Shown here one piece after another: positions 3,386-50,088 of a stretch of DNA of 54,599 nucleotides. The translations under genes were made by a program, and so were the position numbers. Positions within the stretch are counted from its first letter, which is position 1. Every line of letters begins with the position of its first letter. The stretch is taken from assembly GCA_031272005.1 (NCBI GenBank), contig JAISUQ010000060.1:1-54599 (forward strand), in the 5' to 3' direction. This stretch comes from Coriobacteriales bacterium. GTDB lineage: Bacteria > Actinomycetota > Coriobacteriia > Coriobacteriales > UBA8131. The notes beneath the pieces were generated by a model. That model saw only the letters and a program-made list of their open reading frames with translations, ran no database searches and was not told where the DNA came from.

Positions 3386-3390
3386 CTCAA

Positions 3391-7646: not shown

Positions 7647-7658
7647 CCCGCTCGCCTC

Positions 7659-10327: not shown

Positions 10328-10450
10328 CCAATGTGTTCAGACTGGATGCTCAGCCTGAAAGCACTTGTCACTTATTACTCAAACCAATATTGTACCAAAG
10401 TAAAGTAAAACTGCAATCCAAATGCCAACAAGGTTTAATTTCCGGCAATA

Positions 10451-10520: not shown

Positions 10521-10715
10521 TTACACGATTATGGTTGTGCGACAATGCGTTTGTCAAAGGTGCCGGGGGCTAAGACAGGAGCTATACCAGAAACCATGCC
10601 GGGGACTAAGGAACTGTAAGACAGGGGACATGACAGGAGATGTATCGGGGATACCACAGTTCTGACCATTGCATTATAGTGGTTCTGGCGCTTTCGCGAC
10701 AGCATTGGAGGGCAG

Positions 10716-11672: not shown

Positions 11673-11818
11673 GGGAACAGTGGCTGATGGCCGTATGGTT
11701 TCTCCACCGCTGAGGTGCTGCTTTGCGTGCTATGGGCAGAGTCACCTCTCGCACACCAACCTATCGAAGCATTATCATAAGCAGCACAATTTCTACAGCC
11801 CACAGAAAGGGAGTCGAG

Positions 11819-32296: not shown

Positions 32297-32970
32297 GAAC
32301 TGCACAGACAAGCCAGGTTGCTGGCAAGGAGATGACCCGCAAGGCGGTAGCGCTGCTGGCGGCCCTGGCGCTGCTGGCGATGGGGCTGCTCGGCTCGGTT
32401 GGTTGTACCACCGGCACCGGCACTGCCAGCGGCAGTGACAGCGGCGAAGAGAGCTCGGCCGACAGCGGCGGTGTGGCCGCCCCGGGTGAGGCCGGCGGTT
32501 TCGAGGAGTTCCCGCTCGGCGACGACCAGGTGGTCGGGCCGTTGAATGTGGCTGGTGTCTACTTCCAGCCGGTGGATATGGAGCCGGCCGGCAACTCGCT
32601 GCCTGCCGCCCAGTCCGACGCCCACCTGGAGGCCGACATCTCGGCCGCCGAGGGTAACAAGTGGGGCTATGGCGTGGGCGACTTCGTGCCCAACCTGACC
32701 GTGGACTACGAGATCACCGACAGCAGCGGCAAGGTGGTGGATGAGGGCGCCTTCATGCCGATGAGCGCCTCCGACGGCCCGCACTACGGCGCCAACGTCA
32801 AGTTCGGCCCGGCTGGCACCTACACCGTCAAGTTCATCATCCACAGCCCCGAGGAGCAGGGCTACCTGCTGCACACCGACCCGGAGACCGGCGTGGATGG
32901 CGATTACTCCAGCTATAAGTTCCCCTACACGGTGGAGTTCACCTTCGACTGGGATGCCCGCGAGTGGTAA
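32293..32970 (+). CDS. P19/FetP/Tp34-type periplasmic iron-transport lipoprotein
   Basis: ATGA overlap with FTR1 and RBS GGTGAGGAG. The lipobox is LLGSVGC. VAGVYFQPVDMEP..., AHLEADI and GPHYGANV are typical of this family. 225 aa. Confidence 0.8.
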   Translation: MRTAQTSQVAGKEMTRKAVALLAALALLAMGLLGSVGCTTGTGTASGSDSGEESSADSGGVAAPGEAGGFEEFPLGDDQVVGPLNVAGVYFQPVDMEPAGNSLPAAQSDAHLEADISAAEGNKWGYGVGDFVPNLTVDYEITDSSGKVVDEGAFMPMSASDGPHYGANVKFGPAGTYTVKFIIHSPEEQGYLLHTDPETGVDGDYSSYKFPYTVEFTFDWDAREW

Positions 32971-33132
32971 GCGCAATTCGGCCAACAGGCCATTGAGCGG
33001 TGCCTCCCCGGGCACCGGATAGCGGGTACAGGGCGGGCAGCTGCGCCCTCGAACAGTTGCAACAGTGGCGAGATTGTGGGTGCTTCCTGCAATCTCGCTG
33101 CTGCGCGATAGTCGGATTATCCCTGGAGCGAA

Positions 33133-34572: not shown

Positions 34573-34586
34573 GGCGGGGTAGCGCA

Positions 34587-36041: not shown

Positions 36042-37584
36042 TTCCCGCCCTTGCCCCAGCTCCCCAGGCCGCCGCTTCGGCTCTGGCTCTGGCTCTGGCC
36101 CCCGCCGCCCCCGCCGCTCCCGCCGTCCCCGCTCGGCTGGCAACCGGCTGTTCTTTCTCCGCACCATCCTGGCTTCACTCGTTCGCCGCCGCTCGCGCCT
36201 GTTGGTTGCCCTGCTCAGTGTGACGGTCGGCGCCTGCATCCTCAGCGGCCTGGTGACCATTTACTACGACATCCCCCGTCAGATGGGTCTGCAGTTCCGC
36301 TCCTACGGTGCCAACATGGTGTTGCTGCCGGCCGGAGATACCAACAACGCGGCGACCACCGCAGACAGCAACCCGGCAACCGTCGCATCCGCTGAGGCAG
36401 CAGCGGCAGAAGAGACGGACGCTGACGCAGAAGCAGCCGCAGAAGCAGAAGCAGCCGCAGCCGCAGCCACAGACGCAGAAGCGCCAGCAGGCGGAGAAAT
36501 GCCGGCCAGCCCGGACTTCTCCACCATCCAACTGCCAACCGGCCACACCACCGATACCAACTGTACCGGCTGCCACTCACAGGACTTCCTCGCCAATGCA
36601 GCTGCCAGCCAGGCCGCCGCGCCAGCCGCCTCCGCCTCCGCCAGCACTGCCAATGTCGCCGGCATCAGCCCCGAGCAGTTGACGGCGGCCCTGCAGCAGA
36701 TTCCCGCCAGCGAGTTGGTGGGTGTGGCGCCGTATCGCTATGGCAACGTGACCATCAACGAGACGCCGCAGATCCTGGCCGGCACCGACTTCTCCGGCGC
36801 TCAGGCTACCAGCCCGTTCTGGAGCGTCGAGGGTCAATGGCCGCAAAGCACAGGCCAGGCGTTGGTGGGCGTGGAGCTGGCCAACACCTACAGGCTGGAG
36901 GTTGGCAAGCGCTTCTCCGTCAGCACCTCGGCAGCCGACGGCAGCACTGCCATCCGCCAGCTGGAGGTGGCGGGCATCCTGACTACCGGCGGTGATGAGG
37001 AGGCCTTCGTCTTCGTCTCGCTCGCCGACTTCGCCAGCCTGCTGGGCCAGGCCGACTACGACAATGTGGAATTGAGTATCAATGCCTCCGGCGATGAGCT
37101 GGCGGCTTACGCAGATGCCATCCAGGCCGCCCAGCCTGCGCTCAGCGCGCAAGCCGTCAAGCGCGTCACTGCCAGCCAGGACGCCGTGTTGGGCAAGCTG
37201 CAGGCTCTGGTCTATCTGGTCACAACGGTGGTGCTGCTGCTGACGCTGATCTGCGTGGCCACCACCATGATGGCCGTTGTGACCGAGCGCCGCCGCGAGA
37301 TCGGCCTGCGCAAGGCGCTTGGCGCTGGCAACGATGAGGTCGCCTGGACCTTCATCGGCGAAGGCCTGGCCACCGCCCTGGTCGGCGGCATCCTCGGCGC
37401 GGCAGCCGGCTTCGGTTTCGCCCAGTTGGTCAGCCTGCAGGTCTTCGGACAGACCATCCACTTCAACTGGGCCATCGCACCGCTGACCGTGGTGGTGATG
37501 CTGGTGACCACCGTGCTGGCCTGCCTGCTGCCCCTGCGCTCGGCCACTGCCATCGATCCGGCTCTGGTTTTGAAAGGAGAATGA
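36031..37584 (+). CDS. FtsX/MacB-type ABC permease 2
   Basis: The ATG at 36031 has RBS GGAGG and overlaps the permease 1 stop by 11 nt. The motif is ERRREIGLRKALGAG. There is a very long Ala/Glu/Thr/Asp-rich insert, and the N-terminal ~40 aa are Arg/Pro/Ser/Gly-rich. 517 aa. The start is the only in-frame ATG available. Confidence 0.75.
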   Translation: MAADSRPCPSSPGRRFGSGSGSGPRRPRRSRRPRSAGNRLFFLRTILASLVRRRSRLLVALLSVTVGACILSGLVTIYYDIPRQMGLQFRSYGANMVLLPAGDTNNAATTADSNPATVASAEAAAAEETDADAEAAAEAEAAAAAATDAEAPAGGEMPASPDFSTIQLPTGHTTDTNCTGCHSQDFLANAAASQAAAPAASASASTANVAGISPEQLTAALQQIPASELVGVAPYRYGNVTINETPQILAGTDFSGAQATSPFWSVEGQWPQSTGQALVGVELANTYRLEVGKRFSVSTSAADGSTAIRQLEVAGILTTGGDEEAFVFVSLADFASLLGQADYDNVELSINASGDELAAYADAIQAAQPALSAQAVKRVTASQDAVLGKLQALVYLVTTVVLLLTLICVATTMMAVVTERRREIGLRKALGAGNDEVAWTFIGEGLATALVGGILGAAAGFGFAQLVSLQVFGQTIHFNWAIAPLTVVVMLVTTVLACLLPLRSATAIDPALVLKGE

Positions 37585-38315
37585 AGATGCCCTCGGCAAC
37601 CCCCACCACCGCCACCCCCGCCGCCACCCCCGCCAGCAAGCCAACCTCACAAGCCCTGCTCCAGCTGGACGCGGTGACCAAAAGCTACGGCGACCTGGAT
37701 GCCCTCAGAGACATCAGCTTCGCCGTCCAACCTGGCGAGTGGGTCTCGATCATGGGGCCATCCGGCAGCGGCAAGACCACGCTGATGAACATCATCGGCT
37801 GCATGGACAAGCCCACCTCCGGCTCCGTGCTGCTCTCCGGCCAGGACATCTCACGCGAGAGCCCCCGCGCCTTAACCGCCATCCGCCGTGACCACATCGG
37901 TCTGGTATTCCAGCAGTTCCACCTGATTGCCTATCTCAGCGCCCTGGAAAACGTGATGGTCGCTCAGTATTACCACAGCCTGGTGGATGAGGCCGAGGCG
38001 CTGCAGGCCCTGGAACGCGTCGGCCTGGCCAAGCGCGCCAACCACCTGCCGGCCCAGCTTTCCGGCGGCGAGCAACAGCGGGTCTGCATCGCTCGCGCCC
38101 TGATCAACCGCCCCCAGCTGATTCTGGCCGACGAGCCTACCGGCAATCTGGATGAGGACAACGAGCTGAAGGTCATGGCCATCCTGCGCGAGCTGCATGA
38201 CGAAGGCCACACCCTGATAGTGGTGACCCACGACCCCGAAGTAGCCAGCGCCGCCCAGCGCACCATCATCCTCGAACACGGCCACCTCAAAGAGATCCGC
38301 AACAACCAGCCCTGA
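37581..38315 (+). CDS. ABC transporter ATP-binding protein (MacB/LolD-like)
   Basis: ATGA overlap with the preceding gene. Walker A is GPSGSGKTT, the signature is LSGGEQQR and Walker B is LILADEPTGNLD. 244 aa with a Thr/Pro/Ala-rich N-terminal tail. Confidence 0.9.
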   Translation: MKMPSATPTTATPAATPASKPTSQALLQLDAVTKSYGDLDALRDISFAVQPGEWVSIMGPSGSGKTTLMNIIGCMDKPTSGSVLLSGQDISRESPRALTAIRRDHIGLVFQQFHLIAYLSALENVMVAQYYHSLVDEAEALQALERVGLAKRANHLPAQLSGGEQQRVCIARALINRPQLILADEPTGNLDEDNELKVMAILRELHDEGHTLIVVTHDPEVASAAQRTIILEHGHLKEIRNNQP

Positions 38316-38900: not shown

Positions 38901-39158
38901 ATGGAAGCACTGGCTGTTCTTTGTTCTATTCTGAAGCAGGCGCGCTTGGATCAGGGATTAACGCAAAAGGAGCTGGCAAAAAGAGCCGGCGTATCGCGGG
39001 CATGGCTGATAGCGCTGGAATCTGGCACCGCCAGTAGAGCCGAGCTCGGCAAGGTCCTGGATTTGGCCACAACGCTCGGATTGGAGTTAAAGCCGAGCAA
39101 ACGCAAACCTTTAGACGCAGATGCAGAGTTGATCATGCAGAGGTACTTCGATGCCTGA
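38901..39158 (+). CDS. hipB: XRE-family HTH protein, HipB-like antitoxin
   Basis: 85 aa. The HTH is LKQARLDQGLTQKELAKRAGVSRAWLIALESG. It overlaps the HipA N-terminal ORF by 8 nt. Confidence 0.75.
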   Translation: MEALAVLCSILKQARLDQGLTQKELAKRAGVSRAWLIALESGTASRAELGKVLDLATTLGLELKPSKRKPLDADAELIMQRYFDA

Positions 39159-39962
39159 GCCTGCGAAACTCAACGTCTTGCTCGGCGATGAGCTCGTTGG
39201 CACTTTGACCCAAACACGGGACAAAGGTCGGGTCTTCGCCTATCGACAGGATTGGGAAAGCGTGACCACGGCAATATCCTTGTCGATGTCAACGCGCAAG
39301 CAAACATACCCGCAAAGAGTCGTTGATCCATATCTTTGGGGACTGATACCGGATAGCCATATCATACGACACCAGATTGCGCGACAGTTCAATGTGTCTG
39401 CCAACAACCCCATGGCTTTGCTCGGTAAAATTGGTTTGGATTGCGCAGGCGCTGTCCGATTCTGCTCAGACAGCCAGTTGTTGAAGACCCCAGCCTGCTT
39501 GCATCGGCTGGACGCCCGGAGATGCGCGAACGCAACCGCATGGATTTTGCCCGCTCACTTTTCTTCAACTACTTGATGATGGCTCCGGATGCTCACGCCA
39601 AGAACTATTCGGTGTTGTTGTTAGCCGACGCAGTCCGGCTTGCACCACTCTATGACATCGCCTCTGGTGCGCCCTATACCAAAGACTATGGGAGGCCTGG
39701 TTTCAAGCGGGCAGCGATGCGCATTGGCGGGGAGAATCAGTTTGGCGAACTATCCCCAAAAAACCTGCAGAGGTTTGCCCAGCGCAACGGATTCGAAGAA
39801 CAATGGGTGATGGAGACGTTCAAGCAGATGGCAGAGGGCATTCCGTCCGCCCTGGAGAACGTGTTTGCCTGTAACGTCCATATCACAGGCACCAGCGAGT
39901 TGCGGGAAGCCATGCTGGGTCGGCTGAGCAGCCATTGCCAGAGAGCGGGCAAGCCACTTTAA
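39151..39962 (+). pseudogene. hipA: Decayed hipA toxin gene (frameshifted, central kinase core missing)
   Basis: ORF 39151-39576 carries the HipA coupling / N-terminal domain (LNVLLGDELVGTL..., GLDCAGAVRF). ORF 39441-39962, in another frame, carries the HipA C-terminal domain (LFFNYLMMAPDAHAKNYSVLL...LAPLYDI). Together they are about 270 aa, against about 440 aa for intact HipA, and no GAQPK-type P-loop region is present. Confidence 0.7.
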
Positions 39963-40225
39963 CTTACACAAATTCATAGTGCCCGGCTTGCTCATGCAGC
40001 AACCTCTTTCAATGCTGCAAGGGCTTCAAGTGCGGCATCAGGTTGCCTGCCTGGCGAGGCGAGAGTGTCGAGTAGACCCCATTCCGGCGAGACCATTGCC
40101 ACTCTTTTGACCCGGCGTGCAACGGTACGCACATTGTTGCTCAGCGGCACAACAAGCATAACCTGCGCAGAGTGGGGAGATGCATCGCTGTCCTGGTGCT
40201 AACACTAATTGATATAGGCTACTAG

Positions 40226-40254
40226 TTGACTAATTCTAATATAGGTGTTAAACT
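40226..40254 (+). promoter_or_regulatory. Sigma-70-like promoter TTGACT-17-TAAACT upstream of the radical SAM cluster
   Basis: The -35 is at 40226-40231 and the -10 at 40249-40254. It has the same architecture and the same TAAACT -10 as the promoter at 30927. It leaves a leader of roughly 120 nt before the GTG at 40379. Confidence 0.5.
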
Positions 40255-40378
40255 GCCAAATGGATTGAAGCACATTGTCTTCCATGTAGCGGGGCCCGGG
40301 GTTGGTCTGCTCCGGGTCTTTGCATGTCAGCGAAGTGCTGACTTCCTAACACGGCGGATTTTACAGGAGGCGCAGACA

Positions 40379-41392
40379 GTGGATAAATTCAGAAGCCAGA
40401 TTATCGACATCGTGGATAAAGGCCGGCTGGGCCAGGGGTTGGAAGACGATGAGATCCTCCAACTCTACTCCACCGACCCGGAGTCGCCCGAGGCCTTCTA
40501 CATCATGTGGGCCGGTCGCCAGCTGCAGCGCCAGGCCGCCAACAACATCGCCGAGGTGCACGCCCAAATCGGCCTCAACGGCTCGCCCTGTCCCAAGAAC
40601 TGCCAGTTTTGCAGCTTCGCCATCTGCAACGGCGTGCGTCAGGGCAAGCTGGAGATGCCTTTGCAGGATGTGCTGGAATACATCAAGATTTACCAGGAGC
40701 AGGGCGCCAATGCCATCCTGATGATGGTCACGGCCACCTACAAGTTCGAGAAGCTGTTGGAGATGGGCGCTGCCGCCCGCGCGGTGATGGACAAGGAGCT
40801 GCCGCTGCTGGCCAACACCGGCGACATGAGCCTGGAGCAGGCTCAGCAGCTTAAGGCCGCCGGATTCAACGGCTGCTACCATGCCGTGCGCATGGGGGAG
40901 GGCGTAACCACCACCATCCCCGTCGAGCGACGCCTGGAGACCATCGACAACATCCATGCTGCGGGCTTGAGCCTCTCCACCTGCGTGGAGCCGGTCGGCC
41001 CGGAGCATACGCCTCAGGAATTGACGGAGAAGACCCGCATCTGCATCAACTCCGGGGCGCTTTCGGCCGGCGTGGGCAAGCGGATCATGATTCCCGGCAC
41101 CATGCTGGCCAAATACGGGCAGTTGAACAACCTGGTAGCCGGGCGCAACGTCGCCGTCTACCGCCTGGCTGCCGGGCTCAAGCCGCGCCTGAACTGCGCT
41201 GGTGGCACCGATTTGGCCTCGGCCATGGGCGCAAATCTGGCCTGGGCGGAGATGGGCACCAACCCGCGTGATACCGAGGAGCGCACCGAGAAGGGCGGTC
41301 GCGGTGTGGACATCGCTTTCTGCAAGAAGGTCTTCAACGACGCTGGCTGGGATGTATTGGAAGGCCCGTCACCCGGCTGGATCCTGGACTGA
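40379..41392 (+). CDS. Radical SAM protein, BioB-fold (biotin synthase / HydE / PylB-like), paralogue 1
   Basis: GTG start after RBS CAGGAGG, 337 aa. The CX3CX2C motif is CPKNCQFCSF. By eye it is collinear with BioB (LANTGDMSLEQAQQLKAAG..YHAV; AGLSLSTCVEP; GTNPRD). Confidence 0.8.
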   Translation: MDKFRSQIIDIVDKGRLGQGLEDDEILQLYSTDPESPEAFYIMWAGRQLQRQAANNIAEVHAQIGLNGSPCPKNCQFCSFAICNGVRQGKLEMPLQDVLEYIKIYQEQGANAILMMVTATYKFEKLLEMGAAARAVMDKELPLLANTGDMSLEQAQQLKAAGFNGCYHAVRMGEGVTTTIPVERRLETIDNIHAAGLSLSTCVEPVGPEHTPQELTEKTRICINSGALSAGVGKRIMIPGTMLAKYGQLNNLVAGRNVAVYRLAAGLKPRLNCAGGTDLASAMGANLAWAEMGTNPRDTEERTEKGGRGVDIAFCKKVFNDAGWDVLEGPSPGWILD

Positions 41393-41393
41393 G

Positions 41394-42428
41394 ATGGGGC
41401 GGCCGGGGAGCCTAGACCTGGCCGCCTCGCCCCAAGGCAGGCGGACCAGCATCAAGCGCCATGAGCAGCGGGTGACCAGCATCCGCGAGCTGTTCTGGAT
41501 GCTGCTGCCGGTATCCGGGCTGCTCATCGCCTTGGGGCTGCACTACGGGCTGCCAAACGTCTACCCGCTGGCCTACCACCCCAAGACCTACGGCCCGGTG
41601 CTGATCGGCCTGGGTGCTATCTATATAGCATTGATGGCTGCTGCCTGCTTCTGGCCGGCGTTGCGCCGGCGCCTGCGGCACTTCTCCGGCATCTTCTTCG
41701 TCTTGGCCCTGACGCTGGCGGCGCTGGATGTCGCCACCCTCAAGACCGGCTGGCTGCGCCTGCCCTTTGTACCCTCGCCGGATAAGATCCTCTCCGTTTA
41801 CCCAGACAACGCGGCGCAGTTTGTGGAGAACTTCCTGGCCAGCATGAAACTGCTGTTCACCGGGGTGTTTCTGGGTACCCTGGCCGGGGTGCTGAGCGGC
41901 ATCCTGATGGGCTGGAGCCGCATCGCCAACTATTGGATATCCCCGGTGCTCAAGGTCATCGGCCCGGTGCCGGGGGTGGCCTGGCTGCCGATTGCCATGG
42001 TGCTGATGCCCTCCTCGCGCGCTGCCGGTCTGTTCCTGATTGGCCTGGCGCTGTGGTTTCCCCTCACGCTGATGATCTCCACCGCCATCCGCGACACCGA
42101 CGTCCGCCTGATCGAGAGTGCCCGGGTGCTGGGCGCCTCCGAGCTGCATATCCTCACCCACGTGGCCATCCCGGCGGCCATCCCGGCCATGTTCACCGGC
42201 ATGTTCATGGGGCTCTCGGCCAGCTTCGGCGCCCTCATCTACGCCGAGATGCTGGGGGTCAAAGCCGGTTTGGGCTGGTACATCGAGTGGTCGCGGGCCT
42301 GGGGCGAGTACGCCAAGATCTTCGCCACCATCGGCATCTTCATCGTGCTGTTCTTCGCGCTGATCGAGATTCTGTTCCGCATCCGCAACCACGCCATGAA
42401 GTGGCAGAAGGGCGTAGTGCGGTGGTGA
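41394..42428 (+). CDS. ABC permease, NitT/TauT (SsuC/TauC/ThiX-like) family with extra N-terminal TMs
   Basis: The ATG lies 1 nt after the preceding stop. 344 aa. The binding-protein-dependent transport signature region is ESARVLGAS....THVAIPAAIPAMFTG. Confidence 0.8.
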   Translation: MGRPGSLDLAASPQGRRTSIKRHEQRVTSIRELFWMLLPVSGLLIALGLHYGLPNVYPLAYHPKTYGPVLIGLGAIYIALMAAACFWPALRRRLRHFSGIFFVLALTLAALDVATLKTGWLRLPFVPSPDKILSVYPDNAAQFVENFLASMKLLFTGVFLGTLAGVLSGILMGWSRIANYWISPVLKVIGPVPGVAWLPIAMVLMPSSRAAGLFLIGLALWFPLTLMISTAIRDTDVRLIESARVLGASELHILTHVAIPAAIPAMFTGMFMGLSASFGALIYAEMLGVKAGLGWYIEWSRAWGEYAKIFATIGIFIVLFFALIEILFRIRNHAMKWQKGVVRW

Positions 42429-43183
42429 CGGAGAAGATTGGACTGGAAGCCGCAGAGCTCCTGCGCATCTTTGAGGACGCTGACGGCAACGAGGTCGTTG
42501 CCCTGGACGGTTTCAGCTTAAGCATCCAAGGCAGCGAGACCGTGGGCTTGATTGGCCCGTCCGGCTGCGGCAAGTCGACCTTCCTGCGCCTGGTGGCCGG
42601 GCTGGACCAGCCGCAGGGCGGCAGCCTCAGCGTGGGCGGCCAGCCCATCACCGGCCCGGATTACCACCGCGGCCTGGTCTTCCAAAACGCCGCCCTGTTC
42701 GAGTGGCTGACCGTTTGGGACAACATCGCCTTCGGCCTCAAAGCCCGCAAAGTCTACCGTCAGCAGAAACAACGCGTCCAGGAACTCATCGACCTGATGG
42801 GTCTGACCGGCTTCGAGAAGTCCTACCCGCACCAGATCTCCGGCGGCATGGCCTCGCGCACCGCCCTGGCCCGCTCCTTCATCCAGGAGCCGGACATCAT
42901 CCTGCTGGATGAGCCGCTGTCCTCGCTGGATGCTTTCACCCGGGCGACCATCCAGGACCAAATCATCGACATGCAACGCCGCGCTCAGGCGATCATTATC
43001 TTAGTAACCCATGATATCGAAGAGGCAGTCTATCTCTGCGACCGGATCATCGTCATGAGCGCCCGCCCCGGGCGCGTCCTCGGCGAGGTGGCCGTAGACC
43101 TGCCGCACCCCCGCGACCGCACCGAGGAGCGCTTCATCGCCCTGCGCCGTGCGGTGATGCATCTGCTAGGCAACCAGGCTTGA
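42422..43183 (+). CDS. ABC ATP-binding protein, NitT/TauT (SsuB/TauB-like) family
   Basis: GTG start overlapping the permease stop (GTGA at 42425 is an alternative). Walker A is GPSGCGKST, the signature is ISGGMASR and Walker B is IILLDEP, with H-loop VTHD. About 253 aa. Confidence 0.85.
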   Translation: MVTEKIGLEAAELLRIFEDADGNEVVALDGFSLSIQGSETVGLIGPSGCGKSTFLRLVAGLDQPQGGSLSVGGQPITGPDYHRGLVFQNAALFEWLTVWDNIAFGLKARKVYRQQKQRVQELIDLMGLTGFEKSYPHQISGGMASRTALARSFIQEPDIILLDEPLSSLDAFTRATIQDQIIDMQRRAQAIIILVTHDIEEAVYLCDRIIVMSARPGRVLGEVAVDLPHPRDRTEERFIALRRAVMHLLGNQA

Positions 43184-43239
43184 GGGTTGTCCCCATCAGG
43201 CCTGGTAACTATAGGAGCTCTACCAAAGGAGGAACAGCA

Positions 43240-44310
43240 ATGCAGGAATTATCGAGAAGGAAGTTCATCCAAGCGGCCGCCGTGGCCACAGCCGCCGCCG
43301 GCCTGGCCACCACCGGCCTGGCTGGTTGCCAGCAGCAGGCCGCCGACGACCAGGCCGCTGCAACGGATGGCGCCGATGCCAGCACCGACGCCAGCAGCGC
43401 TCCAGAGAAGATCCCCGTCACCGTAGGCTACTGGGGCGGCACCTGCGAGTCACCCATCTTCATCGGCGTGGAGCAGGGCATCTTCGAGGAGGAAGGCCTG
43501 GATGTCGACGTGCTGCAAATCACGGCCGACGTAGCCCCGCTGATGGCCAACGACGAGCTGGACTGCTTCGAGCTGACGCCGGATAAGTTCAAGCCGATCC
43601 AAAACGGCCTGGAGGTCAAGATCATCGACTCGCTGCACATCGGCTGCATCGGCGGCGCCGCCTCGGTGGAAAGCGGCATCAAGACCGTGGCCGACCTGGA
43701 GGGCAAGACGGTAGCCGCCTCCATCGGCTCCATCCCCCAGATCCAGATTGCCTCCCAGATGGTCCTGGCCGGCAAGGACCCCAACAAGGTCAACTGGGTG
43801 ACTTATCCCAACGCCGAGATGGAACTGGCCCTGGACAACGGCGAGATCGATGCCTTTGCCGCCTACGACCCCTTCCCCTCGATGGCCTGGGAAAACGGCA
43901 AGGTACGCTTCTTCTCCAACACCTATGACGAGGGGCTCAAGGAGTACCTCTGCTGCTTCGTAGGCCTCTCCGACCGCGCTCTGAACCGGGAGAACGGCAC
44001 CGAGCTGGCCCGCCGCCTCTCCGCCGCCTTCAAGCGCAGCTGCGCCTTTTTGCAGGAGAATCCCGATGAGGCCGCCCAGATCGTCCAGACGGCCGGCTAC
44101 ATCGCCGGCGACGCCGAGATGAACGCCCATTGCATCAGCGAGTACACCTGGGTGGCCGGCGACAAACAGCTGCTTGACGATAGCGTCTACGAGATCTGGA
44201 TGCAGATCTACCGCGCCGGCGCCCTGGAGGAAGCCCCCAAAGACGAGGCCGAGCTGGACGCCTACATCAAGGAGCTACGCGCCGGCATGGTCGCCTACTA
44301 CGGCGACTGA
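43240..44310 (+). CDS. Tat-exported lipoprotein, NMT1/THI5/SsuA-like ABC substrate-binding protein, Cys-rich
   Basis: The ATG follows RBS AAAGGAGG. The twin-arginine motif is SRRKFIQ and the lipobox is GLAGC. 356 aa. I counted seven Cys in the mature part, including a vicinal CC (EYLCCFVG). Confidence 0.8.
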   Translation: MQELSRRKFIQAAAVATAAAGLATTGLAGCQQQAADDQAAATDGADASTDASSAPEKIPVTVGYWGGTCESPIFIGVEQGIFEEEGLDVDVLQITADVAPLMANDELDCFELTPDKFKPIQNGLEVKIIDSLHIGCIGGAASVESGIKTVADLEGKTVAASIGSIPQIQIASQMVLAGKDPNKVNWVTYPNAEMELALDNGEIDAFAAYDPFPSMAWENGKVRFFSNTYDEGLKEYLCCFVGLSDRALNRENGTELARRLSAAFKRSCAFLQENPDEAAQIVQTAGYIAGDAEMNAHCISEYTWVAGDKQLLDDSVYEIWMQIYRAGALEEAPKDEAELDAYIKELRAGMVAYYGD

Positions 44311-44337
44311 GGGTTGCGCGGAGAAGACCCGGCAGCA

Positions 44338-45525
44338 ATGACTTCGGCAACGGGAGCGGCGACGGCAACGGCGGCAACGACGACAACGGCAACAGCGGCA
44401 GCGGCAACGGCAACAACGGCAACGGCGACAGCAGCGGCAGCGGCAACGGCAACAGCGACAGCAGCGGCAGCGACAGCGGCAGCAACGTCAGCGCCACCAG
44501 CCACTGCTGGCGCGCCGGTTAAGACGCCAGGCCGGGCGGTTGCGCCAGCAGGCGGCAAGGGTCTCCATGCCCGCCTGCTGGCCGCCCTGGCTGGCGAGAC
44601 GCTGGATTTTGCGGAAGCGCTGGCGTTGTACACCATGCCGGAGGACAGCCCCCAAGCCCAGGCGCTCATCTCCGCCGCCCGTCTGCTGACCCGCCAGGCC
44701 AACGGTGGGCGCGGGCAGGTCTTCGCCCAGATCGGCCTGGACGCCCTGCCCTGCCCGGAGATGTGCCAGTATTGCAGCTTCGCCGCCAACAGCACGGCCC
44801 TGGAGGCTCGCGACGTCCTCAGTCTGGATGAGGTAGTGGCCTATGCCCGCGCCTTCGATGCGGCCGGTATCCACCTGGTGTCTTTGATGGCCACGGCGGC
44901 TTGTGACTTTCAGCGCTATTTGGCGATAACCGCCGCTGTGCGCCAGGTGCTGCAGCCCAGCGTGCCGATCCTGGCCAACCTCGGTGACCTGGACGCCGGG
45001 CAGGCCCAGGCGCTGCGCCAGGCCGGTGCCAACGCCATCTACCATGCTGTGCGCCTTGGCGAGGGTTCAATCACCAACATCGACCCGACCCGTCGCTGGC
45101 AGACCATCTCCCATGCCAGCCTGGCTGGCCTGAAGCTGATGACCGGCGTCGAGCCGCTTTACGAGCAGCAACAGCCTCAGGACGTGGTAAACCGGATGTT
45201 CGAGACCCTACGCAGCGGTGCGCTGTGTACCGGTTGCTGCCCGCTGGTGCCGGTGGTCGGCACGCCGCTGGCCGATGCCGGCTGCACGCCACCAACACCC
45301 CAGCGTCGCCAGCTTATCGGCGCCATCTATCGCCTGGTAATCGGCACCAGCATCCCCTTCGGCCTGGGTGGCATCAGCTGGGTGGACGCCGGCACCAACC
45401 CCCGCGGTCGCCACCTGAGCAAAGACCCTGCCGAACTGCAGCGTCAGGTGGCGGAGAAGAAGCAGGCTCTGGCCGCCGAGGGTTGGAGCATCCCCGCGCG
45501 CCCGCTGCCGGAATGGCAGGCCTGA
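44338..45525 (+). CDS. Radical SAM protein, BioB-fold, paralogue 2, with an Ala/Thr low-complexity N-terminus
   Basis: CX3CX2C motif CPEMCQYCSF. It shares AQIGL, P[LI]LAN.GD, AG.N..YHAVR.GEG, AGL.L.T.VEP, GTNPR and AGW motifs with paralogue 1. There is no in-frame start codon between about 44338 and the conserved core, so the ~50-aa (A/T)n tract appears to be translated. A TTG at 44314 is an alternative start. Confidence 0.75.
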   Translation: MTSATGAATATAATTTTATAAAATATTATATAAAAATATATAAAATAAATSAPPATAGAPVKTPGRAVAPAGGKGLHARLLAALAGETLDFAEALALYTMPEDSPQAQALISAARLLTRQANGGRGQVFAQIGLDALPCPEMCQYCSFAANSTALEARDVLSLDEVVAYARAFDAAGIHLVSLMATAACDFQRYLAITAAVRQVLQPSVPILANLGDLDAGQAQALRQAGANAIYHAVRLGEGSITNIDPTRRWQTISHASLAGLKLMTGVEPLYEQQQPQDVVNRMFETLRSGALCTGCCPLVPVVGTPLADAGCTPPTPQRRQLIGAIYRLVIGTSIPFGLGGISWVDAGTNPRGRHLSKDPAELQRQVAEKKQALAAEGWSIPARPLPEWQA

Positions 45526-45529
45526 AGCC

Positions 45530-46720
45530 ATGCCTGTACACCGCGCCGGCCAGCCCAAGGTCTACCTGGATAACAGCTCCACCAGCTTCCCCAAGCCACC
45601 GGGTGTGGTCAAGGCGGTGACCGAGTACCTGGAGGATGTCGGCTGCAACCTCAACCGCACCGGCTTTGCCACCAGCTGCGTGCTGAACAAGCGCACCCGC
45701 GAAGCCCGCACCCGCTTGGCACGCCTGTTCAATTATCCCGAGTTCAAGCACGTCTGCTTCACCACAGGTATTACCACCAGCCTGAACATCGCCCTCAAAG
45801 GTCTGCTCAAGCGCGGCGACCACGTGCTGATCTCGCACATGGAGCACAACGCCGTGACCCGGCCGCTGTTCCAACTGCGTCGCCGGGGCGTCAGCTTCAG
45901 CTTCATCCCCTGCGCCAGCGACGGCACCCTTGATCCAGCCAGCATCCCGCCGCTGCTCAAGCCCAACACCCGCGCCATCTGCTGTCTGCACGGCTCCAAT
46001 GTCTGCGGCACCATCCTGCCGATCCGCCAGATTGGCGCCATCGCCCGCGAGGCCGGTTTGCTGTTCATCGTCGACAGCGCCCAGAGCGCCGGTGTGCTGC
46101 CCATCGACATGCAGGCCGATAACATCGACGTCCTCTGCTTCGCTGCCCACAAGGGCCTGCTCGGCCCGCCCGGCGTCGGCGGCCTGATTCTGCGCCCGGA
46201 GTTGGGCAGCCGCATCGAGCCTTTGGTGGTCGGCGGCACCGGGGTCTTCTCCGAGGAGGACAAAGTGCCAGACGACCTGCCGATGCATCTGGAGAGCGGC
46301 ACGCCCAACCTGATGGGCTACTATGGCCTGGCGGCTGCCCTGCGCTGGCTGGAGAAGACCGGCATCGAGCGCATCCACGCCCGGGAGGTGGAGCTCTACG
46401 AGCATCTGCTGGCCGGCCTGCAGCAGTTGGACAGCCTGTGCATCCACGGCACTCAGGACAGTCGCACTTCGCTGTGCGTTTTGGCGGTCACCGCGCCGGG
46501 TTTGGACATCGGCCAGGTGGCTTGGCGGCTGGATTCCAAGCATCGGGTGAGCACCCGCTGCGGCCTGCACTGTGCGCCTTGGGCCAACCGGGCCATCGGC
46601 ACCTGGCCCACCGGTACTCTGCGCCTTTCGCCCGGCTACTTCACCAAACCCCGTGAGTTGGACTATGCTGTAAGCGCATTGGAGGAATCGCTATGGTACG
46701 TGCGCAAGCAGACGAGGTGA
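45530..46720 (+). CDS. Class V aminotransferase / cysteine desulfurase (SufS/CsdA/selenocysteine-lyase-like)
   Basis: 396 aa. It has YLDNSSTSFP, FAAHKGLLGP (PLP lysine) and STRCGLHCAP (active-site Cys loop). Confidence 0.85.
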   Translation: MPVHRAGQPKVYLDNSSTSFPKPPGVVKAVTEYLEDVGCNLNRTGFATSCVLNKRTREARTRLARLFNYPEFKHVCFTTGITTSLNIALKGLLKRGDHVLISHMEHNAVTRPLFQLRRRGVSFSFIPCASDGTLDPASIPPLLKPNTRAICCLHGSNVCGTILPIRQIGAIAREAGLLFIVDSAQSAGVLPIDMQADNIDVLCFAAHKGLLGPPGVGGLILRPELGSRIEPLVVGGTGVFSEEDKVPDDLPMHLESGTPNLMGYYGLAAALRWLEKTGIERIHAREVELYEHLLAGLQQLDSLCIHGTQDSRTSLCVLAVTAPGLDIGQVAWRLDSKHRVSTRCGLHCAPWANRAIGTWPTGTLRLSPGYFTKPRELDYAVSALEESLWYVRKQTR

Positions 46721-47484
46721 GACAAAACACCCTCACTTCCAGCCAGGCTGCCATTCAACAACACTATGCAGAAGTGGCTGAAGAAGTGACTGAAGAAGTG
46801 GCTGAGATTGCCGCCTCTGGCAGCTGCTCGGCCGACCGCGGCTGCGGCAAGCCGCTGGAGCGCGCCGCCCTGCAACCTGGCGAGGTGGTGCTGGATCTGG
46901 GCTGTGGCGCCGGCAGCGAATTGCTGGCGGCCGCCGCGCAGGTAGGGGAGAGTGGCCAGGTTTTCGGCCTGGACATGACCCCGCAGATGCTGGCCCTGGC
47001 ACAAAGCCGCGTCGAGCAAGCCGGCTTCAGCAACATCAAGCTGCTCCCGGGCCTGATCGAGAACATCCCGCTGGCGGATGCCAGCGTGGATGTGGTCATC
47101 TCCAACTGTGTGCTCAACCTCTGCGATGATAAACCACGGGCATTGGCCGAGGCTGCCCGCGTGCTGCGCCCCGCAGGTCGCCTCTGCATCGCCGATATCA
47201 TCCTCGTTGCCGCCGACCTGCCGCTTGAGACCCGCCGCCTCACCGCGCCCATCCTCGGCTGCACCAACGGCGTCCTGACCACCGCCGAGTACCTGGCCGC
47301 GCTGGCCGCCGCCGGCTTCAGCGACGCCAGCGTGGAGCCTTACCGCCCCTACGCCGCCCGCACCCTGCTGCAGCGCGCCGAGCAACGCGGCCACAATGAG
47401 GCTCTGGCACATCTCTCCAGCACCATCCGCCAACGCAGCGTAGACAACGCCTTCGCCGCCGCCAACATCCAAGCCCGCAAATAG
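46693..47484 (+). CDS. SAM-dependent methyltransferase, arsenite methyltransferase (ArsM)-like
   Basis: 263 aa with RBS GGAGGAA. It overlaps the desulfurase gene by 28 nt. Motif I is VLDLGCGAG. VISNCVLNLCDDKP and ILGCTNG resemble ArsM Cys-containing motifs, and there is an N-terminal Cys pair SGSCSADRGC. Confidence 0.75.
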   Translation: MVRAQADEVRQNTLTSSQAAIQQHYAEVAEEVTEEVAEIAASGSCSADRGCGKPLERAALQPGEVVLDLGCGAGSELLAAAAQVGESGQVFGLDMTPQMLALAQSRVEQAGFSNIKLLPGLIENIPLADASVDVVISNCVLNLCDDKPRALAEAARVLRPAGRLCIADIILVAADLPLETRRLTAPILGCTNGVLTTAEYLAALAAAGFSDASVEPYRPYAARTLLQRAEQRGHNEALAHLSSTIRQRSVDNAFAAANIQARK

Positions 47485-47491
47485 CCAGCCG

Positions 47492-47577
47492 CCGCCATGC
47501 GGCCGACCCGCTGCCGGCACGCGACCGCCATGCGGCCGACCCGCAACCGACCCGCAACCGACCCGCGACCGACACGC
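47492..47577. repeat. Direct repeats after the methyltransferase stop: a 20-mer x2 plus an 11-bp tandem array
   Basis: CCGCCATGCGGCCGACCCGC occurs at 47492-47511 and 47525-47544. This is followed by (G/A)(G/A)CCGACCCGC tandem units from 47534 to 47566 and one degenerate unit to 47577. Confidence 0.8.
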
Positions 47578-47979: not shown

Positions 47980-48079
47980 TAACTCGGATCAGCCATAGTC
48001 GAAATAGGCTGAGCTCTCCGGCCGCCGGCACAGCGACGACGCGCTGAGCGCTGGCGGCACCAGAGCACAACAACCAAGG

Positions 48080-48123
48080 GCTGGGCGGCGGATAAAACCC
48101 CAACCGCAGCAAAGCCGCCCAGC
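48080..48123. other. Perfect 10-bp stem hairpin GCTGGGCGGC-N24-GCCGCCCAGC
   Basis: Read directly from the sequence. It lies downstream of the small membrane gene and has no T-run. Confidence 0.4.
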
Positions 48124-48194
48124 GGGTGCACAGGCTGAACTATCCCCAAACCATGCCAACGCATAGCGACCCATTTGCTCGCTGAAATACAAAC

Positions 48195-48328
48195 TCAGCG
48201 CTGAAAGCAAAAAAACCGATTTCAACGCTAAGTAAAATCTTATGCTATACTAAATCAGCACCATAATGGCATAAAGGCAAGTCTATTAAACTCAGCGCTG
48301 AAATCAAAAAATCACGTTTCAGCGCTGA
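48195..48328. promoter_or_regulatory. Three copies of the perfect 10-bp palindrome TCAGCGCTGA, plus one degenerate copy, upstream of the ATPase gene
   Basis: Perfect copies are at 48195-48204, 48292-48301 and 48319-48328. The degenerate copy TCAACGCTAA is at 48222-31. The flanks are conserved (AAACTCAGCGCTGAAA). The last copy ends 16 nt before the ATG at 48345. Confidence 0.55.
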
Positions 48329-48344
48329 GTATAAGGATGAAACC

Positions 48345-49784
48345 ATGGAGATTATTGGCAGGCAACGCGAACAAAAAATCCTTCAACGCTGTCTGGAGTC
48401 AAAAAAGCCTGAATTCATTGCCGTTTACGGGCGACGCCGGGTCGGTAAGACATATCTGATTAGGGAGTATTTTACCAACCGCATCGTGTTTTCGATGACT
48501 GGCACACCCAAAGCCAGCCAGAAGGCACAGTTGGAAGGCTTTGACGATGCCTTGCAGGATGCTGGCGGCGAGGTACAGGTGCCGACACAGAACTGGAATC
48601 AGGCATTCAAACTGTTGCGCCTATTGCTGAAACAGCGGATATCAGACCCGCAGCGCAATGGTAAACTGGTCGTATTCATCGACGAGCTCCCCTGGTTGGC
48701 CACGCAGCGTTCAGGTTTTGTCCAGGCTTTGGAGCATTTTTGGAACAGTTGGGCATCATCGCGTCCAGAACTGATTCTGGTAGTCTGCGGCTCTGCGACT
48801 TCATGGATTATCAACAATCTGATTCATGAGCACGGTGGTTTACACAACCGGGTGACACGTCAGCTCAGGCTGGAGCCCTTTTCACTTTGCGAGTGCGAAC
48901 AATACCTGGAGTATCTTGGGCTGGCCTATACCCATCAACAGATTGCTGAATTGTATATGGTTACCGGCGGCATTCCGTACTATCTGGATTATCTGGAACC
49001 CGGAAAAAGCGTGGCGCAGAATATCGATGCCATGTTCTTTGCTGTTGGCGCGCCGTTGCTGCACGAGTTCGACGACCTCTATGCCTCGCTGTTCAAGAAC
49101 CCCGGTCATCATATTGCAGTGGTTGCTACGCTGGCAGCACATAAAAGCGGCCTGACGCAAAGTGAACTGGCAAAGTCAGCTAAAATCAAAGCCGGTGGCA
49201 CACTCTCAAAAACCCTGCAGGAACTCGAGCAGTGCGGCTTTATTGTCAAACAGAACGATTTTATGAGTAAGCGTATCCAGTACTACAGACTTGTTGACTT
49301 CTATACGTGGTTCTACTTCAAGCATGTCAAAGCTGTCAATGCTCAGGAGCACAACTATTGGCAGGCACGGAGTCGCAAGGGTGAACTTCTGTCTTGGAAT
49401 GGCCTGGCCTTTGAGCGGCTTTGCGAGGCTCACCTCGCCCAAATCAAGCAACGATTGGGCATCGCAGGTATTAGTGTCAAAACCAGTGCCTGGCGCAGCC
49501 GCGAATCCAGGCCAGCGGTGCAGATTGACATGATTATCAGTCGCGAGGACGGTATCATCAATCTCTGTGAAATGAAGTTCTCGGATGCACCCTACGCGAT
49601 TGGAGCCAAGGAGGCTGAGGATTTGAGCTACAAACTGAGCGTGTTCGCCAGTGAGACCAGAACAAGAAAAGCCCTGCATCTGACCATGGTTGCCAGCCAG
49701 GGGTTATCGTCAGGCTCATACCGCGGCGACATACAATCCGTTATCACCTTAAGTGACCTCTTCATGCCACTGCTGACACTTTAG
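48345..49784 (+). CDS. AAA-type ATP-binding protein (archaeal-ATPase / ATPase_2 family with a DUF234-like C-terminus)
   Basis: 479 aa. Walker A is YGRRRVGKT and Walker B is VVFIDELPW. GC is visibly lower than in the surrounding genes. Confidence 0.75.
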   Translation: MEIIGRQREQKILQRCLESKKPEFIAVYGRRRVGKTYLIREYFTNRIVFSMTGTPKASQKAQLEGFDDALQDAGGEVQVPTQNWNQAFKLLRLLLKQRISDPQRNGKLVVFIDELPWLATQRSGFVQALEHFWNSWASSRPELILVVCGSATSWIINNLIHEHGGLHNRVTRQLRLEPFSLCECEQYLEYLGLAYTHQQIAELYMVTGGIPYYLDYLEPGKSVAQNIDAMFFAVGAPLLHEFDDLYASLFKNPGHHIAVVATLAAHKSGLTQSELAKSAKIKAGGTLSKTLQELEQCGFIVKQNDFMSKRIQYYRLVDFYTWFYFKHVKAVNAQEHNYWQARSRKGELLSWNGLAFERLCEAHLAQIKQRLGIAGISVKTSAWRSRESRPAVQIDMIISREDGIINLCEMKFSDAPYAIGAKEAEDLSYKLSVFASETRTRKALHLTMVASQGLSSGSYRGDIQSVITLSDLFMPLLTL

Positions 49785-50088
49785 GCACTGATTGATTCCA
49801 ACTATGACAACTCCTGCTGAGGCACAATTCATTGCGCACTTTCGAGTGTAGCGTTAACGCAGGTCGCAGCGCGCGATGAAGCTTGACCTCTTCGATGTGG
49901 ATTTCCAACCAATCTATCAGGAGTTTGTGCTGTTTAGCCGGTAAAGTGCCAGCCAACAAGTTGCCATCAATGTTATAGACAGCCGCAAACTCGGCATATT
50001 TTACATGCTCGTGTGGTTCATTGCGTTGTACCACATCGTGGAAGAATAAGCGGACGATCAAACTGTCGATGCTGGCAAGCTCTGGCAA
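49762..50088 (-). CDS. DUF4160-family small protein
   Basis: TTG start at 50088 (MPELASIDSLIVRLFFHDVVQRNEPHEHVKYAEFAAVYNI.DGNLLAGTLPAKQHKLLIDWLEIH) after GGAG. The pattern matches DUF4160 (IV.MYF.D...H..PH.H..Y.E..A...I..G..L.G.LP......V..W...H). The longer track ORF runs into the leuS promoter and start region on the opposite strand. Its 3-prime end overlaps the ATPase gene by 23 nt (convergent). Confidence 0.6.
   Translation of the reverse strand: MPELASIDSLIVRLFFHDVVQRNEPHEHVKYAEFAAVYNIDGNLLAGTLPAKQHKLLIDWLEIHIEEVKLHRALRPALTLHSKVRNELCLSRSCHSWNQSVPKVSAVA

Follow-up and report, generated by a model that had tools for sequence, protein, structure and literature searches.

Paired BioB/HydE-fold radical SAM enzymes, an ABC importer, a cysteine desulfurase and an ArsM-type methyltransferase in a conserved gene cluster of Coriobacteriia

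How strict anaerobes acquire sulfur from organic or reduced compounds without O2-dependent enzymes is a largely open question. The nitrogenase-like methylthio-alkane reductase (Mar), whose gene neighbourhoods contain metY, metC and sulfonate transport genes, is the only recently described O2-independent route (bioRxiv 10.64898/2026.08.20.746119). Here we analyse a stretch of 54,599 nucleotides (the window), a contig of a Coriobacteriales metagenome-assembled genome (JAISUQ010000060.1, assembly GCA_031272005.1; locus tags LBR39_). It carries a cluster of seven genes for two radical S-adenosylmethionine (SAM) enzymes, RS1 and RS2, a NitT/TauT-family ATP-binding cassette (ABC) importer with its substrate-binding protein (SBP), a cysteine desulfurase and an ArsM-type methyltransferase (MT).

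Other described systems resemble parts of this gene set. Double-cysteine motifs have been reported as rare among binding proteins and are the hallmark of SaoX, the binding protein of the proposed organometallic SAO system, in which the cysteines are C50, C192 and C224-225 (bioRxiv 10.1101/2022.07.06.499078). The SaoX model has been likened to PDB 4NMY and 2X26, and the function of SAO is hypothetical (Haft and Gwadz 2022, bioRxiv 10.1101/2022.07.06.499078). Among radical SAM enzymes, BioB binds its auxiliary cluster by C97, C128, C188 and R260 in type I and by C52, C138, C198 and R268 in type II (PMC10813225), while LipS1 and LipS2 hold an auxiliary 4Fe-4S cluster on a cysteine triad, C230/C276/C277 and C85/C276/C279, respectively (PMC9585515). 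SclA is the selenocysteine lyase of E. faecalis (PMC13188914).

The adjacency of the cluster genes is far beyond chance: 30 of the 38 related loci show it, and gene fusions occur as well. On this evidence the genes make up a conserved functional unit for the handling of a thiophilic element, most likely sulfur rather than selenium or arsenic. The component families are all known; their combination, the RS1/RS2/RS3 subfamily and the subfamily of Cys-lined binding proteins are uncharacterised, and there is a substantial chance that the pathway is really new.

A recurrent gene set of two separable modules

All seven open reading frames (ORFs) lie on the forward strand and span 40379-47484. RS1 (40379-41392), a radical SAM enzyme of the BioB/HydE/PylB fold with a CX3CX2C motif and a PF04055 match, is followed by the permease (41394-42428; BPD_transp_1) and the ATPase (42425-43183; ABC_tran, 106.7 bits) of the importer and by its binding protein, a Tat-signal lipoprotein (43240-44310; NMT1, NMT1_2, TAT_signal, LAGC lipobox). 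RS2, a divergent paralogue of RS1 that likewise has the CX3CX2C motif, begins at 44314 or 44338 and ends at 45525, with its core from about 44560. The last two genes encode a class II cysteine desulfurase or selenocysteine-lyase-type pyridoxal-phosphate (PLP) enzyme of the EF2568/SclA clade (45530-46720; TIGR01977) and a SAM-dependent MT of the short ArsM type (46693-47484), which has the ArsM cysteine triad and a sub-cutoff score on NF008823. The junctions, in gene order, are +1, a 4-nt overlap, +56, +3 or +27, +4 and a 28-nt overlap. The co-directional packing and the junctions given in the original prediction agree with the ORF coordinates, and its domain families agree with the Pfam and NCBIfam searches. 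The motifs that it quoted are all found in the translations: CPKNCQFCSF, CPEMCQYCSF, AQIGL, P[LI]LAN.GD, YHAVR.GEG, VEP and GTNPR in the radical SAM proteins, FAAHKG and RCGLHCAP in the desulfurase, and SNCVLNL and ILGC in the MT.

The distribution of the gene set was assessed by a locus scan with an RS2 alignment as bait and one genome per species, which returned 56 loci, 38 of them with an RS2-type gene; synteny was counted by tblastn with defined queries within the fetched flanks of these 38 loci. All of them belong to species-level genomes of Eggerthellaceae/Coriobacteriales. A desulfurase and/or an MT stands beside RS2 in 30 of the 38 loci, and both occur together in 24; an RS1-type gene lies within the flanks of 18 and the same ABC system within those of 10. 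Half of the eight exceptions that lack desulfurase and MT (L028, L034, L045 and L049) end at a contig edge. The hosts are gut and termite Coriobacteriia, about 30 genomes. The cluster is consequently no "orphan", as it had been called, since about 30 species-level genomes have kept its gene set; nor is the adjacency unique to the present genome, and its recurrence points to a real system.

The order of the seven genes is not the unit either, but only one arrangement of two separable modules. Module A comprises the RS1-type enzyme and the importer, module B comprises RS2, the desulfurase and the MT. We distinguish the two modules because Gordonibacter pamelaeae possesses RS1 and the importer without RS2, desulfurase or MT. 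Both modules occur in the cultured Ellagibacter isourolithinifaciens DSM 104140, and module A alone in G. pamelaeae, which is likewise cultured. Gene order differs between genomes, and some genomes encode the desulfurase and the MT as one fusion protein, which in locus L005 has 1084 aa. Several loci contain one to three copies of a further RS1-like paralogue, RS3 (41.5% identical to RS1), and up to five radical SAM paralogues are found per locus. Recurrent Cys-rich neighbours are DUF4418, an MbdU-like DUF5714 protein and rhodaneses, the last in several loci and including one similar to 3-mercaptopyruvate sulfurtransferase. DUF4418, a membrane protein of four helices in which PMKCHW and C..C motifs are conserved, has no homologue in the window.

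The absence of module B from Gordonibacter pamelaeae and the variable gene order are what one would expect if unrelated operons had been juxtaposed by chance. This explanation is already contradicted by the conservation described above, by the gene fusions, by a common operator and by the swapping of non-orthologous desulfurases in one slot, and we give it next to no credence. The original prediction knew of no characterised pathway with these genes, and none came to light here: the literature on the gene combination, on ArsM in Eggerthellaceae, on DUF4418 and on the Sao names yielded no description of the cluster.

Two gene starts deserve comment. The likely start of RS1 is the GTG at 40379, 7 nt past an AGGAGG, which yields the 337-aa NCBI protein P0001; position 40226 corresponds to the -35 hexamer with an upstream TTG and is unlikely as the RS1 start. 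The start of RS2 is uncertain, as its first ~80 codons form a low-complexity Ala/Thr repeat. The tandem repeat finder reports here, between the SBP gene and the conserved core of RS2, a (GCN)n repeat of period 6/15/30 (44345-44500, forward strand), which may either encode an Ala/Thr-rich N-terminal extension of RS2 (start 44314/44338) or be an untranslated spacer. The JGI gene call P0121 begins RS2 later, and the close homologue P0123 is likewise N-terminally extended.

The radical SAM enzymes and the importer

RS1 and RS2 are 35% identical (E = 1e-58), and their motifs CPKNCQFC and CPEMCQYC, which mark them as radical SAM enzymes, are invariant within the respective families. On PF04055 (cutoff 29.5 bits) RS1 scores 35.3 bits and RS2, with 26.9 bits, falls just under the cutoff. 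RS1 homologues form 1218 sequence clusters, nearly all from Coriobacteriales/Eggerthellaceae and including Gordonibacter pamelaeae; RS2 homologues form only 33. The AlphaFold2 models (pLDDT 90 for RS1 and 89 for RS2) match radical SAM TIM barrels with a probability of 1.00 and, more specifically, the full-barrel enzymes BioB (types I and II), HydE, PylB, ThiH and HydG, at TM scores of 0.7-0.8 and 14-19% identity. The top PDB matches of the RS1 model are type II BioB and HydE (TM about 0.8), those of the RS2 model BioB, HydE, PylB and ThiH. Two paralogous radical SAM enzymes with predicted folds matching BioB are thus present, as originally proposed; the label "BioB-fold" itself stands insofar as BioB is among the best fold matches, but HydE and PylB are equally close.

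Could RS1 and RS2 be diverged synthases of biotin or lipoate, which finish a vitamin whose precursor is imported? JGI labels many homologues as "biotin synthase", BioB is the best match in both sequence and fold, and LipS1/LipS2 provide a precedent for paired BioB-like enzymes (PMC9585515). On the BioB model TIGR00433, however, RS1 reaches 49.5 bits and RS2 61.9 bits against a cutoff of 225. The alignments confirm the earlier observation that neither paralogue has cysteine where BioB binds its auxiliary cluster: in neither family is there a Cys at the aligned positions of types I and II (C97/C128/C188 or C52/C138/C198). The sequences found there in RS1 and RS2 are SLMAT / ILMMVT, ANxGD and MTGVEP / STCVEP. 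The LipS-type cysteine triad is absent from RS1 and RS2 as judged by a comparison of motifs only, in which no LipS sequence was aligned. Furthermore, YHAVR stands in place of YNHNLD, which we take to be the BioB substrate motif. Up to five paralogues occur per locus, no bio genes lie nearby, and lipoate-protein ligase and lipoyl carrier families are missing from the contexts with gene calls. An identity as biotin or lipoate synthase was therefore rejected on model scores and missing ligands, and we regard this explanation as highly improbable.

Besides the CX3CX2C motif, H61, C202 and C273 are invariant in the RS1 family. RS1 has a His at the position of type II C52 and a Cys two residues past that of C188/C198; C222 is also present, and there is no C-terminal CC or CxxC pair. 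RS2 has a single extra conserved Cys, C216 of its 314-aa core. In RS1 and RS3 alike, strand 1 carries an invariant His, and strands 5 and 7 each carry an invariant Cys; these residues would lie roughly where BioB binds its second cluster. The conserved Arg, Glu and His residues of the RS1 and RS2 barrels (YHAVR.GEG, VEP, GTNPR) would suit an amino-acid-like substrate. Models of HydE have no match among the window proteins, and the PylB model TIGR03910 gives 25 bits against a cutoff of 348. Partners of the HydG/HydF or PylC/PylD type were not found in the Coriobacteriia loci, and the pylBCD genes beside L071 are a separate canonical set.

The neighbourhoods of the radical SAM genes provide further insight. 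In different lineages, RS1-type genes adjoin importers of three ABC families, namely NitT/TauT, an Opp-type in Lagierella and a YnjB-like one, which fits an enzyme that processes an imported compound. In L067 (6998-13010) a distant RS2/RS3-like gene is part of a corrinoid methyl-transfer operon, together with genes for a B12-binding protein, an MtaA/CmuA-thioredoxin-like fusion, CobW, DUF2284, RACo and a PocR/AraC regulator. Together with the MT of the present cluster, this ties the radical SAM family to methyl transfer in two independent settings.

The importer has the features of the NitT/TauT type: BPD_transp_1, ABC_tran and NMT1 all score over their Pfam cutoffs, the Tat signal is recovered by two models, and the lipobox Cys is present. 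The best NCBIfam matches of the permease are SaoP, NtrB and TauC, all below cutoff, and its gate region reads AEM, with neither Cys nor selenocysteine (Sec). The best NCBIfam match of the ATPase is SaoA (232.5 bits, cutoff 360), and SaoP and SaoX stay at 92.7 bits (cutoff 295) and 69.5 bits (cutoff 300). The SBP belongs to the NMT1/SsuA/ThiY group; SsuA and ThiY are the characterised families nearest to it, with ThiY (3ix1), SsuA (2x26) and 4nmy as the nearest solved structures.

The most informative feature of the SBP is a set of residues, C69, H133, C136 and C238-C239, which is invariant in all full-length homologues down to an identity of 30% (E values of 1e-234 to 3e-28). The same search also returned more distant binding proteins, all of which lack this signature, and it thereby delimits a subfamily. 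The CC motif with the further conserved cysteines makes the SBP SaoX-like, the positional equivalence being only estimated from profile coordinates. Most likely, to judge from these residues, the SBP binds a thiophilic substrate at a Cys/His-lined site. The original prediction had the cluster import a small precursor or a metalloid; the invariant residues support the import of a thiophilic precursor. The evidence overall neither favours nor excludes the metalloid.

Outside Coriobacteriia the same SBP subfamily is found in sulfur contexts. In Cohnella (L070) its gene lies 100 nt downstream of that of the homocysteine synthase MetY, with two Bac_luciferase-family genes downstream, which may be SsuD-like monooxygenases. 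In L072 a cystathionine gamma-synthase/lyase, CysK and MetY precede the SBP, after which come DUF4418, a pair of ABC genes of the FtsX type and a NifB-like gene, and NifH/D/K-like genes adjoin the SBP locus; this gene set matches the published pattern of Mar neighbourhoods. In a gut Firmicute isolate (L071), RS3-like genes flank the same unit of importer, DUF4418 and FtsX. There the importer, DUF4418, FtsX/ABC and two RS3-like genes (2376-14483) are located between pylBCD-like genes and a pylS-like tRNA-synthetase gene, followed by a cobalamin riboswitch and cbi genes.

Proposed persulfide formation and methylation, and the element probably handled

The desulfurase of the window scores 391.5 bits on TIGR01977 (cutoff 377), as expected for a class II cysteine desulfurase, and its best PDB matches are SufS-type desulfurases. 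The PLP-binding K208 (HK), H347 and the catalytic C348 of the RxGxHCA motif are invariant in the alignment of the desulfurases; the PLP cysteine desulfurase recognised at first sight is accordingly of class II with intact catalytic residues. In most loci, however, this slot is occupied by a SufS-type enzyme (390-405 bits on TIGR01979), whereas the window and five other loci have a stand-alone desulfurase of the EF2568/SclA type. Neither lineage has lost the PLP-binding Lys or the catalytic Cys, and the use of two lineages in one slot suggests that the persulfide-forming activity itself is needed.

This enzyme raises the question of selenium. The importer might bring in selenium in a form held on the Cys site, such as a selenotrisulfide; the lyase might free selenide or perselenide from selenocysteine, and the MT and radical SAM enzymes might build or detoxify methylated or carbon-bound selenium. 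SufS/CsdB enzymes are good selenocysteine lyases, an activity that would suit this route, and selenoprotein variants are known of the ArsM-like methyltransferase, MbdU and rhodanese families. The window enzyme, which passes TIGR01977, falls in the clade of E. faecalis SclA and has 377.2 bits on the SclA model NF040779, but the cutoff of that model is 525, and most loci have the SufS-type enzyme instead. The selD, selA and yqeB/yqeC-like families occur in none of the 17 contexts with gene calls, the Cys positions of the MTs showed no in-frame TGA, and the MetY/CysK/Mar-like contexts indicate bulk sulfur instead of a trace element. We consider a selenium pathway improbable.

In most loci the SufS-type desulfurase is fused to an N-terminal domain of ~400 aa with a degenerate, MobA-like NTP_transf_3 region (a weak match), as in L005 (13728-16982), L007 (488-2830) and L068 (7657-10011). 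This domain has the motifs HQP, RPLQ, SWxxWLRR, VFGEE and DFPLLND and has lost the usual glycine-rich NTP loop; it matches no solved structure and no NCBIfam model, and it is absent from the window cluster. The fusion would be in line with maturation of a metallocofactor, in which HydE/BioB-like enzymes, the MobA-fused desulfurase and the MT assemble or sulfurate a variant Mo/W-bis-pyranopterin or a new organometallic centre, by a logic like that of HydE/HydG, Hcg or Moco sulfurase. HydE is among the top structural matches of the radical SAM models, and genes for molybdopterin oxidoreductases and SlyD-like FKBP proteins lie nearby in L004 and L009. Eggerthellaceae, however, encode dozens of molybdoenzymes, and given this number adjacency to one of them is weak evidence; the missing loop and missing relatives of the MobA-like domain, its absence from the window and a dedicated importer with a Cys-lined SBP, which is unexpected for cofactor maturation, make this explanation distinctly improbable.

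The MT of the window scores 221.3 bits on the ArsM model NF008823 (cutoff 263). Its orthologues range from 220 to 265 bits, and that of L007 alone passes; the best PDB matches are the ArsM structures 5evj and 4fr0. In the alignment, a Cys of the ArsM chain stands opposite each of three motifs, RGCG, SNCV and GC, which are kept in 24/24, 24/24 and 20/24 cluster orthologues, respectively, so that the ArsM-like Cys motifs pointed out beforehand prove to be an aligned and conserved triad. We take its positions to be those of C72, C174 and C224 in CmArsM, the enzyme from which the roles of the triad and of N-terminal Cys in As(III) binding are known. An N-terminal CC motif is found in 19 of the 24 MT orthologues and is absent in the window MT. 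The models of ArsM from arsenosugar and arsinothricin synthesis give 83-104 bits against cutoffs of 400-500.

We therefore also have to consider arsenic and related elements. The SBP could capture As(III), Sb(III) or some comparable soft metal or metalloid, which the ArsM-type MT would methylate, with the radical SAM enzymes making or cleaving carbon-metalloid bonds; variants are a detoxification by import and volatilisation, with a mer-like logic, and the synthesis of an organoarsenical as by ArsM+ArsS or ArsM+ArsL. The conserved triad, the N-terminal CC of most orthologues, scores that straddle the ArsM cutoff with one orthologue above it, and the CC motif of the SBP, like that of SaoX from the proposed organometallic SAO, all speak for such a role, as do the Cys-rich DUF4418 and MbdU-like DUF5714 proteins and the distant RS2/RS3-like homologue in a corrinoid operon with CobW and DUF2284. 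By contrast, the families of arsR, arsB/acr3, arsC, arsD and arsA are present in 0/17 contexts with gene calls and Pfam listings, RS1 and RS2 have no match to the NCBIfam models of ArsS or ArsL, and the window MT lacks the N-terminal CC. A high-affinity importer kept family-wide for a toxic trace element is hard to rationalise, and the SBP subfamily adjoins MetY and CysK elsewhere. A metalloid pathway thus appears unlikely. What keeps it alive, along with the selenium pathway, is the Cys triad of the ArsM type, the resemblance of the binding site to that of SaoX and the membership of the lyase in the SclA type.

Sulfur is favoured because of the MetY/CysK/Mar-like contexts, an importer of the SsuA family, desulfurases of the SufS type and the presence of rhodaneses. 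We tentatively propose an oxygen-independent sulfur pathway of uptake, persulfide formation, methylation and radical C-S chemistry, whose substrate, product and direction we infer. In module A, the importer would take up a reduced or organic sulfur compound via the Cys/His-lined site of its lipoprotein, and the RS1-type enzyme would then act on the imported compound without oxygen. In module B, the PLP enzyme would generate an enzyme-bound persulfide, with a rhodanese relay in some genomes, and the Cys-triad MT would methylate the mobilised sulfur; the 5'-deoxyadenosyl radical of RS2 would serve to form or cleave a C-S bond in a small molecule that probably resembles an amino acid. Overall, the cluster might represent an anaerobic counterpart of the O2-dependent ssu/tau/sfn systems and of the nitrogenase-like Mar, or a "split" methylthiotransferase.

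Several observations weigh against a sulfur pathway. For a Cys triad of the ArsM type, the defining arsenite-binding feature of ArsM, no role in the assimilation of sulfur is established, and the cluster MTs sit at the very cutoff of the ArsM model (220-265 vs 263 bits). The window desulfurase falls in a clade that contains a selenocysteine lyase, SclA, and the use of cysteine by a desulfurase in sulfur salvage is not explained. Neither MetY nor CysK was found immediately beside the Coriobacteriia clusters examined, and no SAM or other riboswitch marking a sulfur regulon was found. Moreover, the MetY/Mar contexts concern the SBP/ABC module (with DUF4418/FtsX) and not RS2, the desulfurase or the MT. 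Finally, the activities proposed for every member, as well as substrate and product, are read from sequence comparisons.

In a wider formulation, which leaves the element open and which we consider possible but rather doubtful, a new subfamily of BioB/HydE-fold radical SAM enzymes lacking the BioB-type auxiliary cluster would cooperate with a persulfide donor and a Cys-triad MT to make or break carbon-chalcogen or carbon-metalloid bonds on the compound captured by the SBP, in an unrecognised O2-independent pathway. Examples could be a radical-SAM assimilation of organosulfur leading to methanethiol and methionine, or a new methylthio-, seleno- or arseno-metabolite of gut Coriobacteriia. The cluster is widespread in Eggerthellaceae, a human-gut family known for the metabolism of drugs and polyphenols, and is found in relatives from termite guts as well; the new radical SAM subfamily comprises over 1200 sequence clusters of the RS1 type. 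If the substrate of the MT is not arsenic, this bears on the annotation of "arsenite methyltransferases" in gut metagenomes.

Regulatory sites, surroundings and comparison with known systems

A promoter-like site, TTGACT-17-TAAACT with an extended -10 TG, was found by the promoter scan in front of RS1 (40226-40254, forward strand). The consensus-like promoter claimed for this position holds in that the match is present in a region conserved in other genomes, but the scan as a whole gave no more sites than shuffled sequences. The stretch with promoter and operator upstream of RS1 is kept in L001, L011, L017 and L024. An operator-like palindrome, GAyATTGTCTAnTA with the core AGACA-T-TGTCT, precedes operons of RS1, desulfurase, RS3, MT, ABC and DUF4418 genes in many loci. 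Copies are located in L001 (9870-9883), L011 (6749-6762 and 12205-12218), L017 (6821-6834 and 13323-13336), L007 (427-440), L015 (6541-6554) and L026 (12093-12106 and 15162-15175). The window has a degenerate copy, GATATAGGCTACTA, at 40210-40223 of the forward strand, with 3 mismatches to the consensus. The half-sites resemble what we take to be the corynebacterial McbR box, TAGAC-N6-GTCTA, although the spacing differs. A TetR gene is present in L009 and L026.

The 5' leader of RS1, ~125 nt long (40255-40378, forward strand), has two GC-rich hairpins read from the sequence (about 40293-40318 and 40326-40342). Rfam models do not match it, either at the gathering threshold or with E <= 1, and conservation of its sequence between loci was not found. 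A riboswitch in the leader was rejected: besides the window, the regions upstream of RS1 in seven other loci and five further loci also gave no match to Rfam. In L004 a TPP riboswitch (19758-19866) precedes a Thiamine_BP/ABC permease pair ~9 kb from a stand-alone RS1 and is apparently unrelated to the cluster.

Directly upstream, an iron-uptake-type cluster extends over 31007-38315, with genes for an FTR1 permease, a Fe2+ transport protein like P19, a membrane Fe-S protein like FtrD, a pair of FtsX-type permeases and an ABC ATPase. In other genomes FtsX/ABC/DUF4418 genes stand beside RS1, but the FtsX and ABC ATPase genes of the window (34587-38315) were rejected as members of the seven-gene system; they belong to the FTR1/P19/FtrD-like cluster, and a HipBA module intervenes before RS1. 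This module (38901-39962) consists of a HipB-like helix-turn-helix gene and hipA in the form of two overlapping ORFs, the N-terminal domain at 39151-39576 and the C-terminal domain at 39441-39962, which looks like a frameshifted toxin gene. Its GC content (0.53-0.55) is below that of the surroundings. A XerC/XerD-type tyrosine recombinase (Phage_integrase with an N-terminal SAM-like domain) is encoded farther upstream at 29675-30601. On the other side, tandem repeats of 11 and 33 nt (CCGACCCGCAA-like) extend from the MT stop codon onward (47474-47577), and a protein of the ATPase_2/AAA_14 type with a MarR-like domain is encoded at 48345-49784, in a stretch of low GC (48000-50000; 0.51). The cluster of L005 is interrupted by a similar AAA_14/DUF4143 gene, and genes of this type may be mobile or insertion-prone.

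Among the known systems, SAO of Clostridioides difficile and other anaerobes resembles the importer side of the cluster. Both have a NitT/TauT-type importer, with SaoA, SaoP and SaoX as the best NCBIfam matches of the present proteins, and a lipoprotein SBP with a CC motif and further Cys, with 4NMY and 2X26 among the matches of the cluster SBP. Both also have strict anaerobes among their hosts and have been proposed to traffic thiophilic substrates. However, the Sao scores are far below cutoff, the cluster permease lacks the Sec/Cys gate and the cluster contains no selenoproteins. SaoL (MerB-like), SaoB, SaoC, SaoE, SaoT and SaoD are not matched in the cluster, and genes for radical SAM enzymes, desulfurases or ArsM-type proteins are in turn absent from the SAO locus. 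The pairs ArsM+ArsS (arsenosugar) and ArsM+ArsL (arsinothricin) likewise combine a radical SAM enzyme with a Cys-triad methyltransferase of the ArsM family. They differ in that RS1 and RS2 have the BioB/HydE fold, with no match to ArsS or ArsL, and in that the importer and desulfurase are found only in the present cluster, which is outside any ars resistance context.

BioB and LipS1/LipS2 have the same full TIM-barrel radical SAM fold (TM 0.72-0.80) and an association with sulfur donors, and LipS1/LipS2 are likewise paired paralogues; RS1 and RS2 deviate from them by the lack of auxiliary-ligand Cys, by 14-19% identity in structural alignments, by scores far below cutoff and by other neighbours. 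HydE and PylB, which act on amino-acid-type substrates, match RS1 and RS2 structurally as well as BioB does, whereas their partner genes are absent from the Coriobacteriia loci and the PylB score is 25 vs 348 bits. With MiaB, RimO and MtaB the likeness would be mechanistic and lie in the proposed chemistry, a radical SAM C-H activation with a methylated sulfur donor. These methylthiotransferases are single proteins with UPF0004 and TRAM domains, which were not found in the cluster, and with an auxiliary 4Fe-4S cluster and tRNA or protein substrates.

The ssu/tau/sfn systems and Mar have no counterpart of the desulfurase or of the ArsM-type MT, and the Coriobacteriia clusters in turn have no monooxygenase or nitrogenase-like enzyme. 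What they have in common is an SsuA-family SBP with a NitT/TauT ABC importer, in a subfamily that stands beside MetY, CysK, Bac_luciferase and Mar-like genes in other genomes. The proposed role is also the same, namely the supply of sulfur where sulfate assimilation is unavailable, with radical SAM enzymes in the place that the monooxygenase or nitrogenase-like enzyme takes in the known systems.

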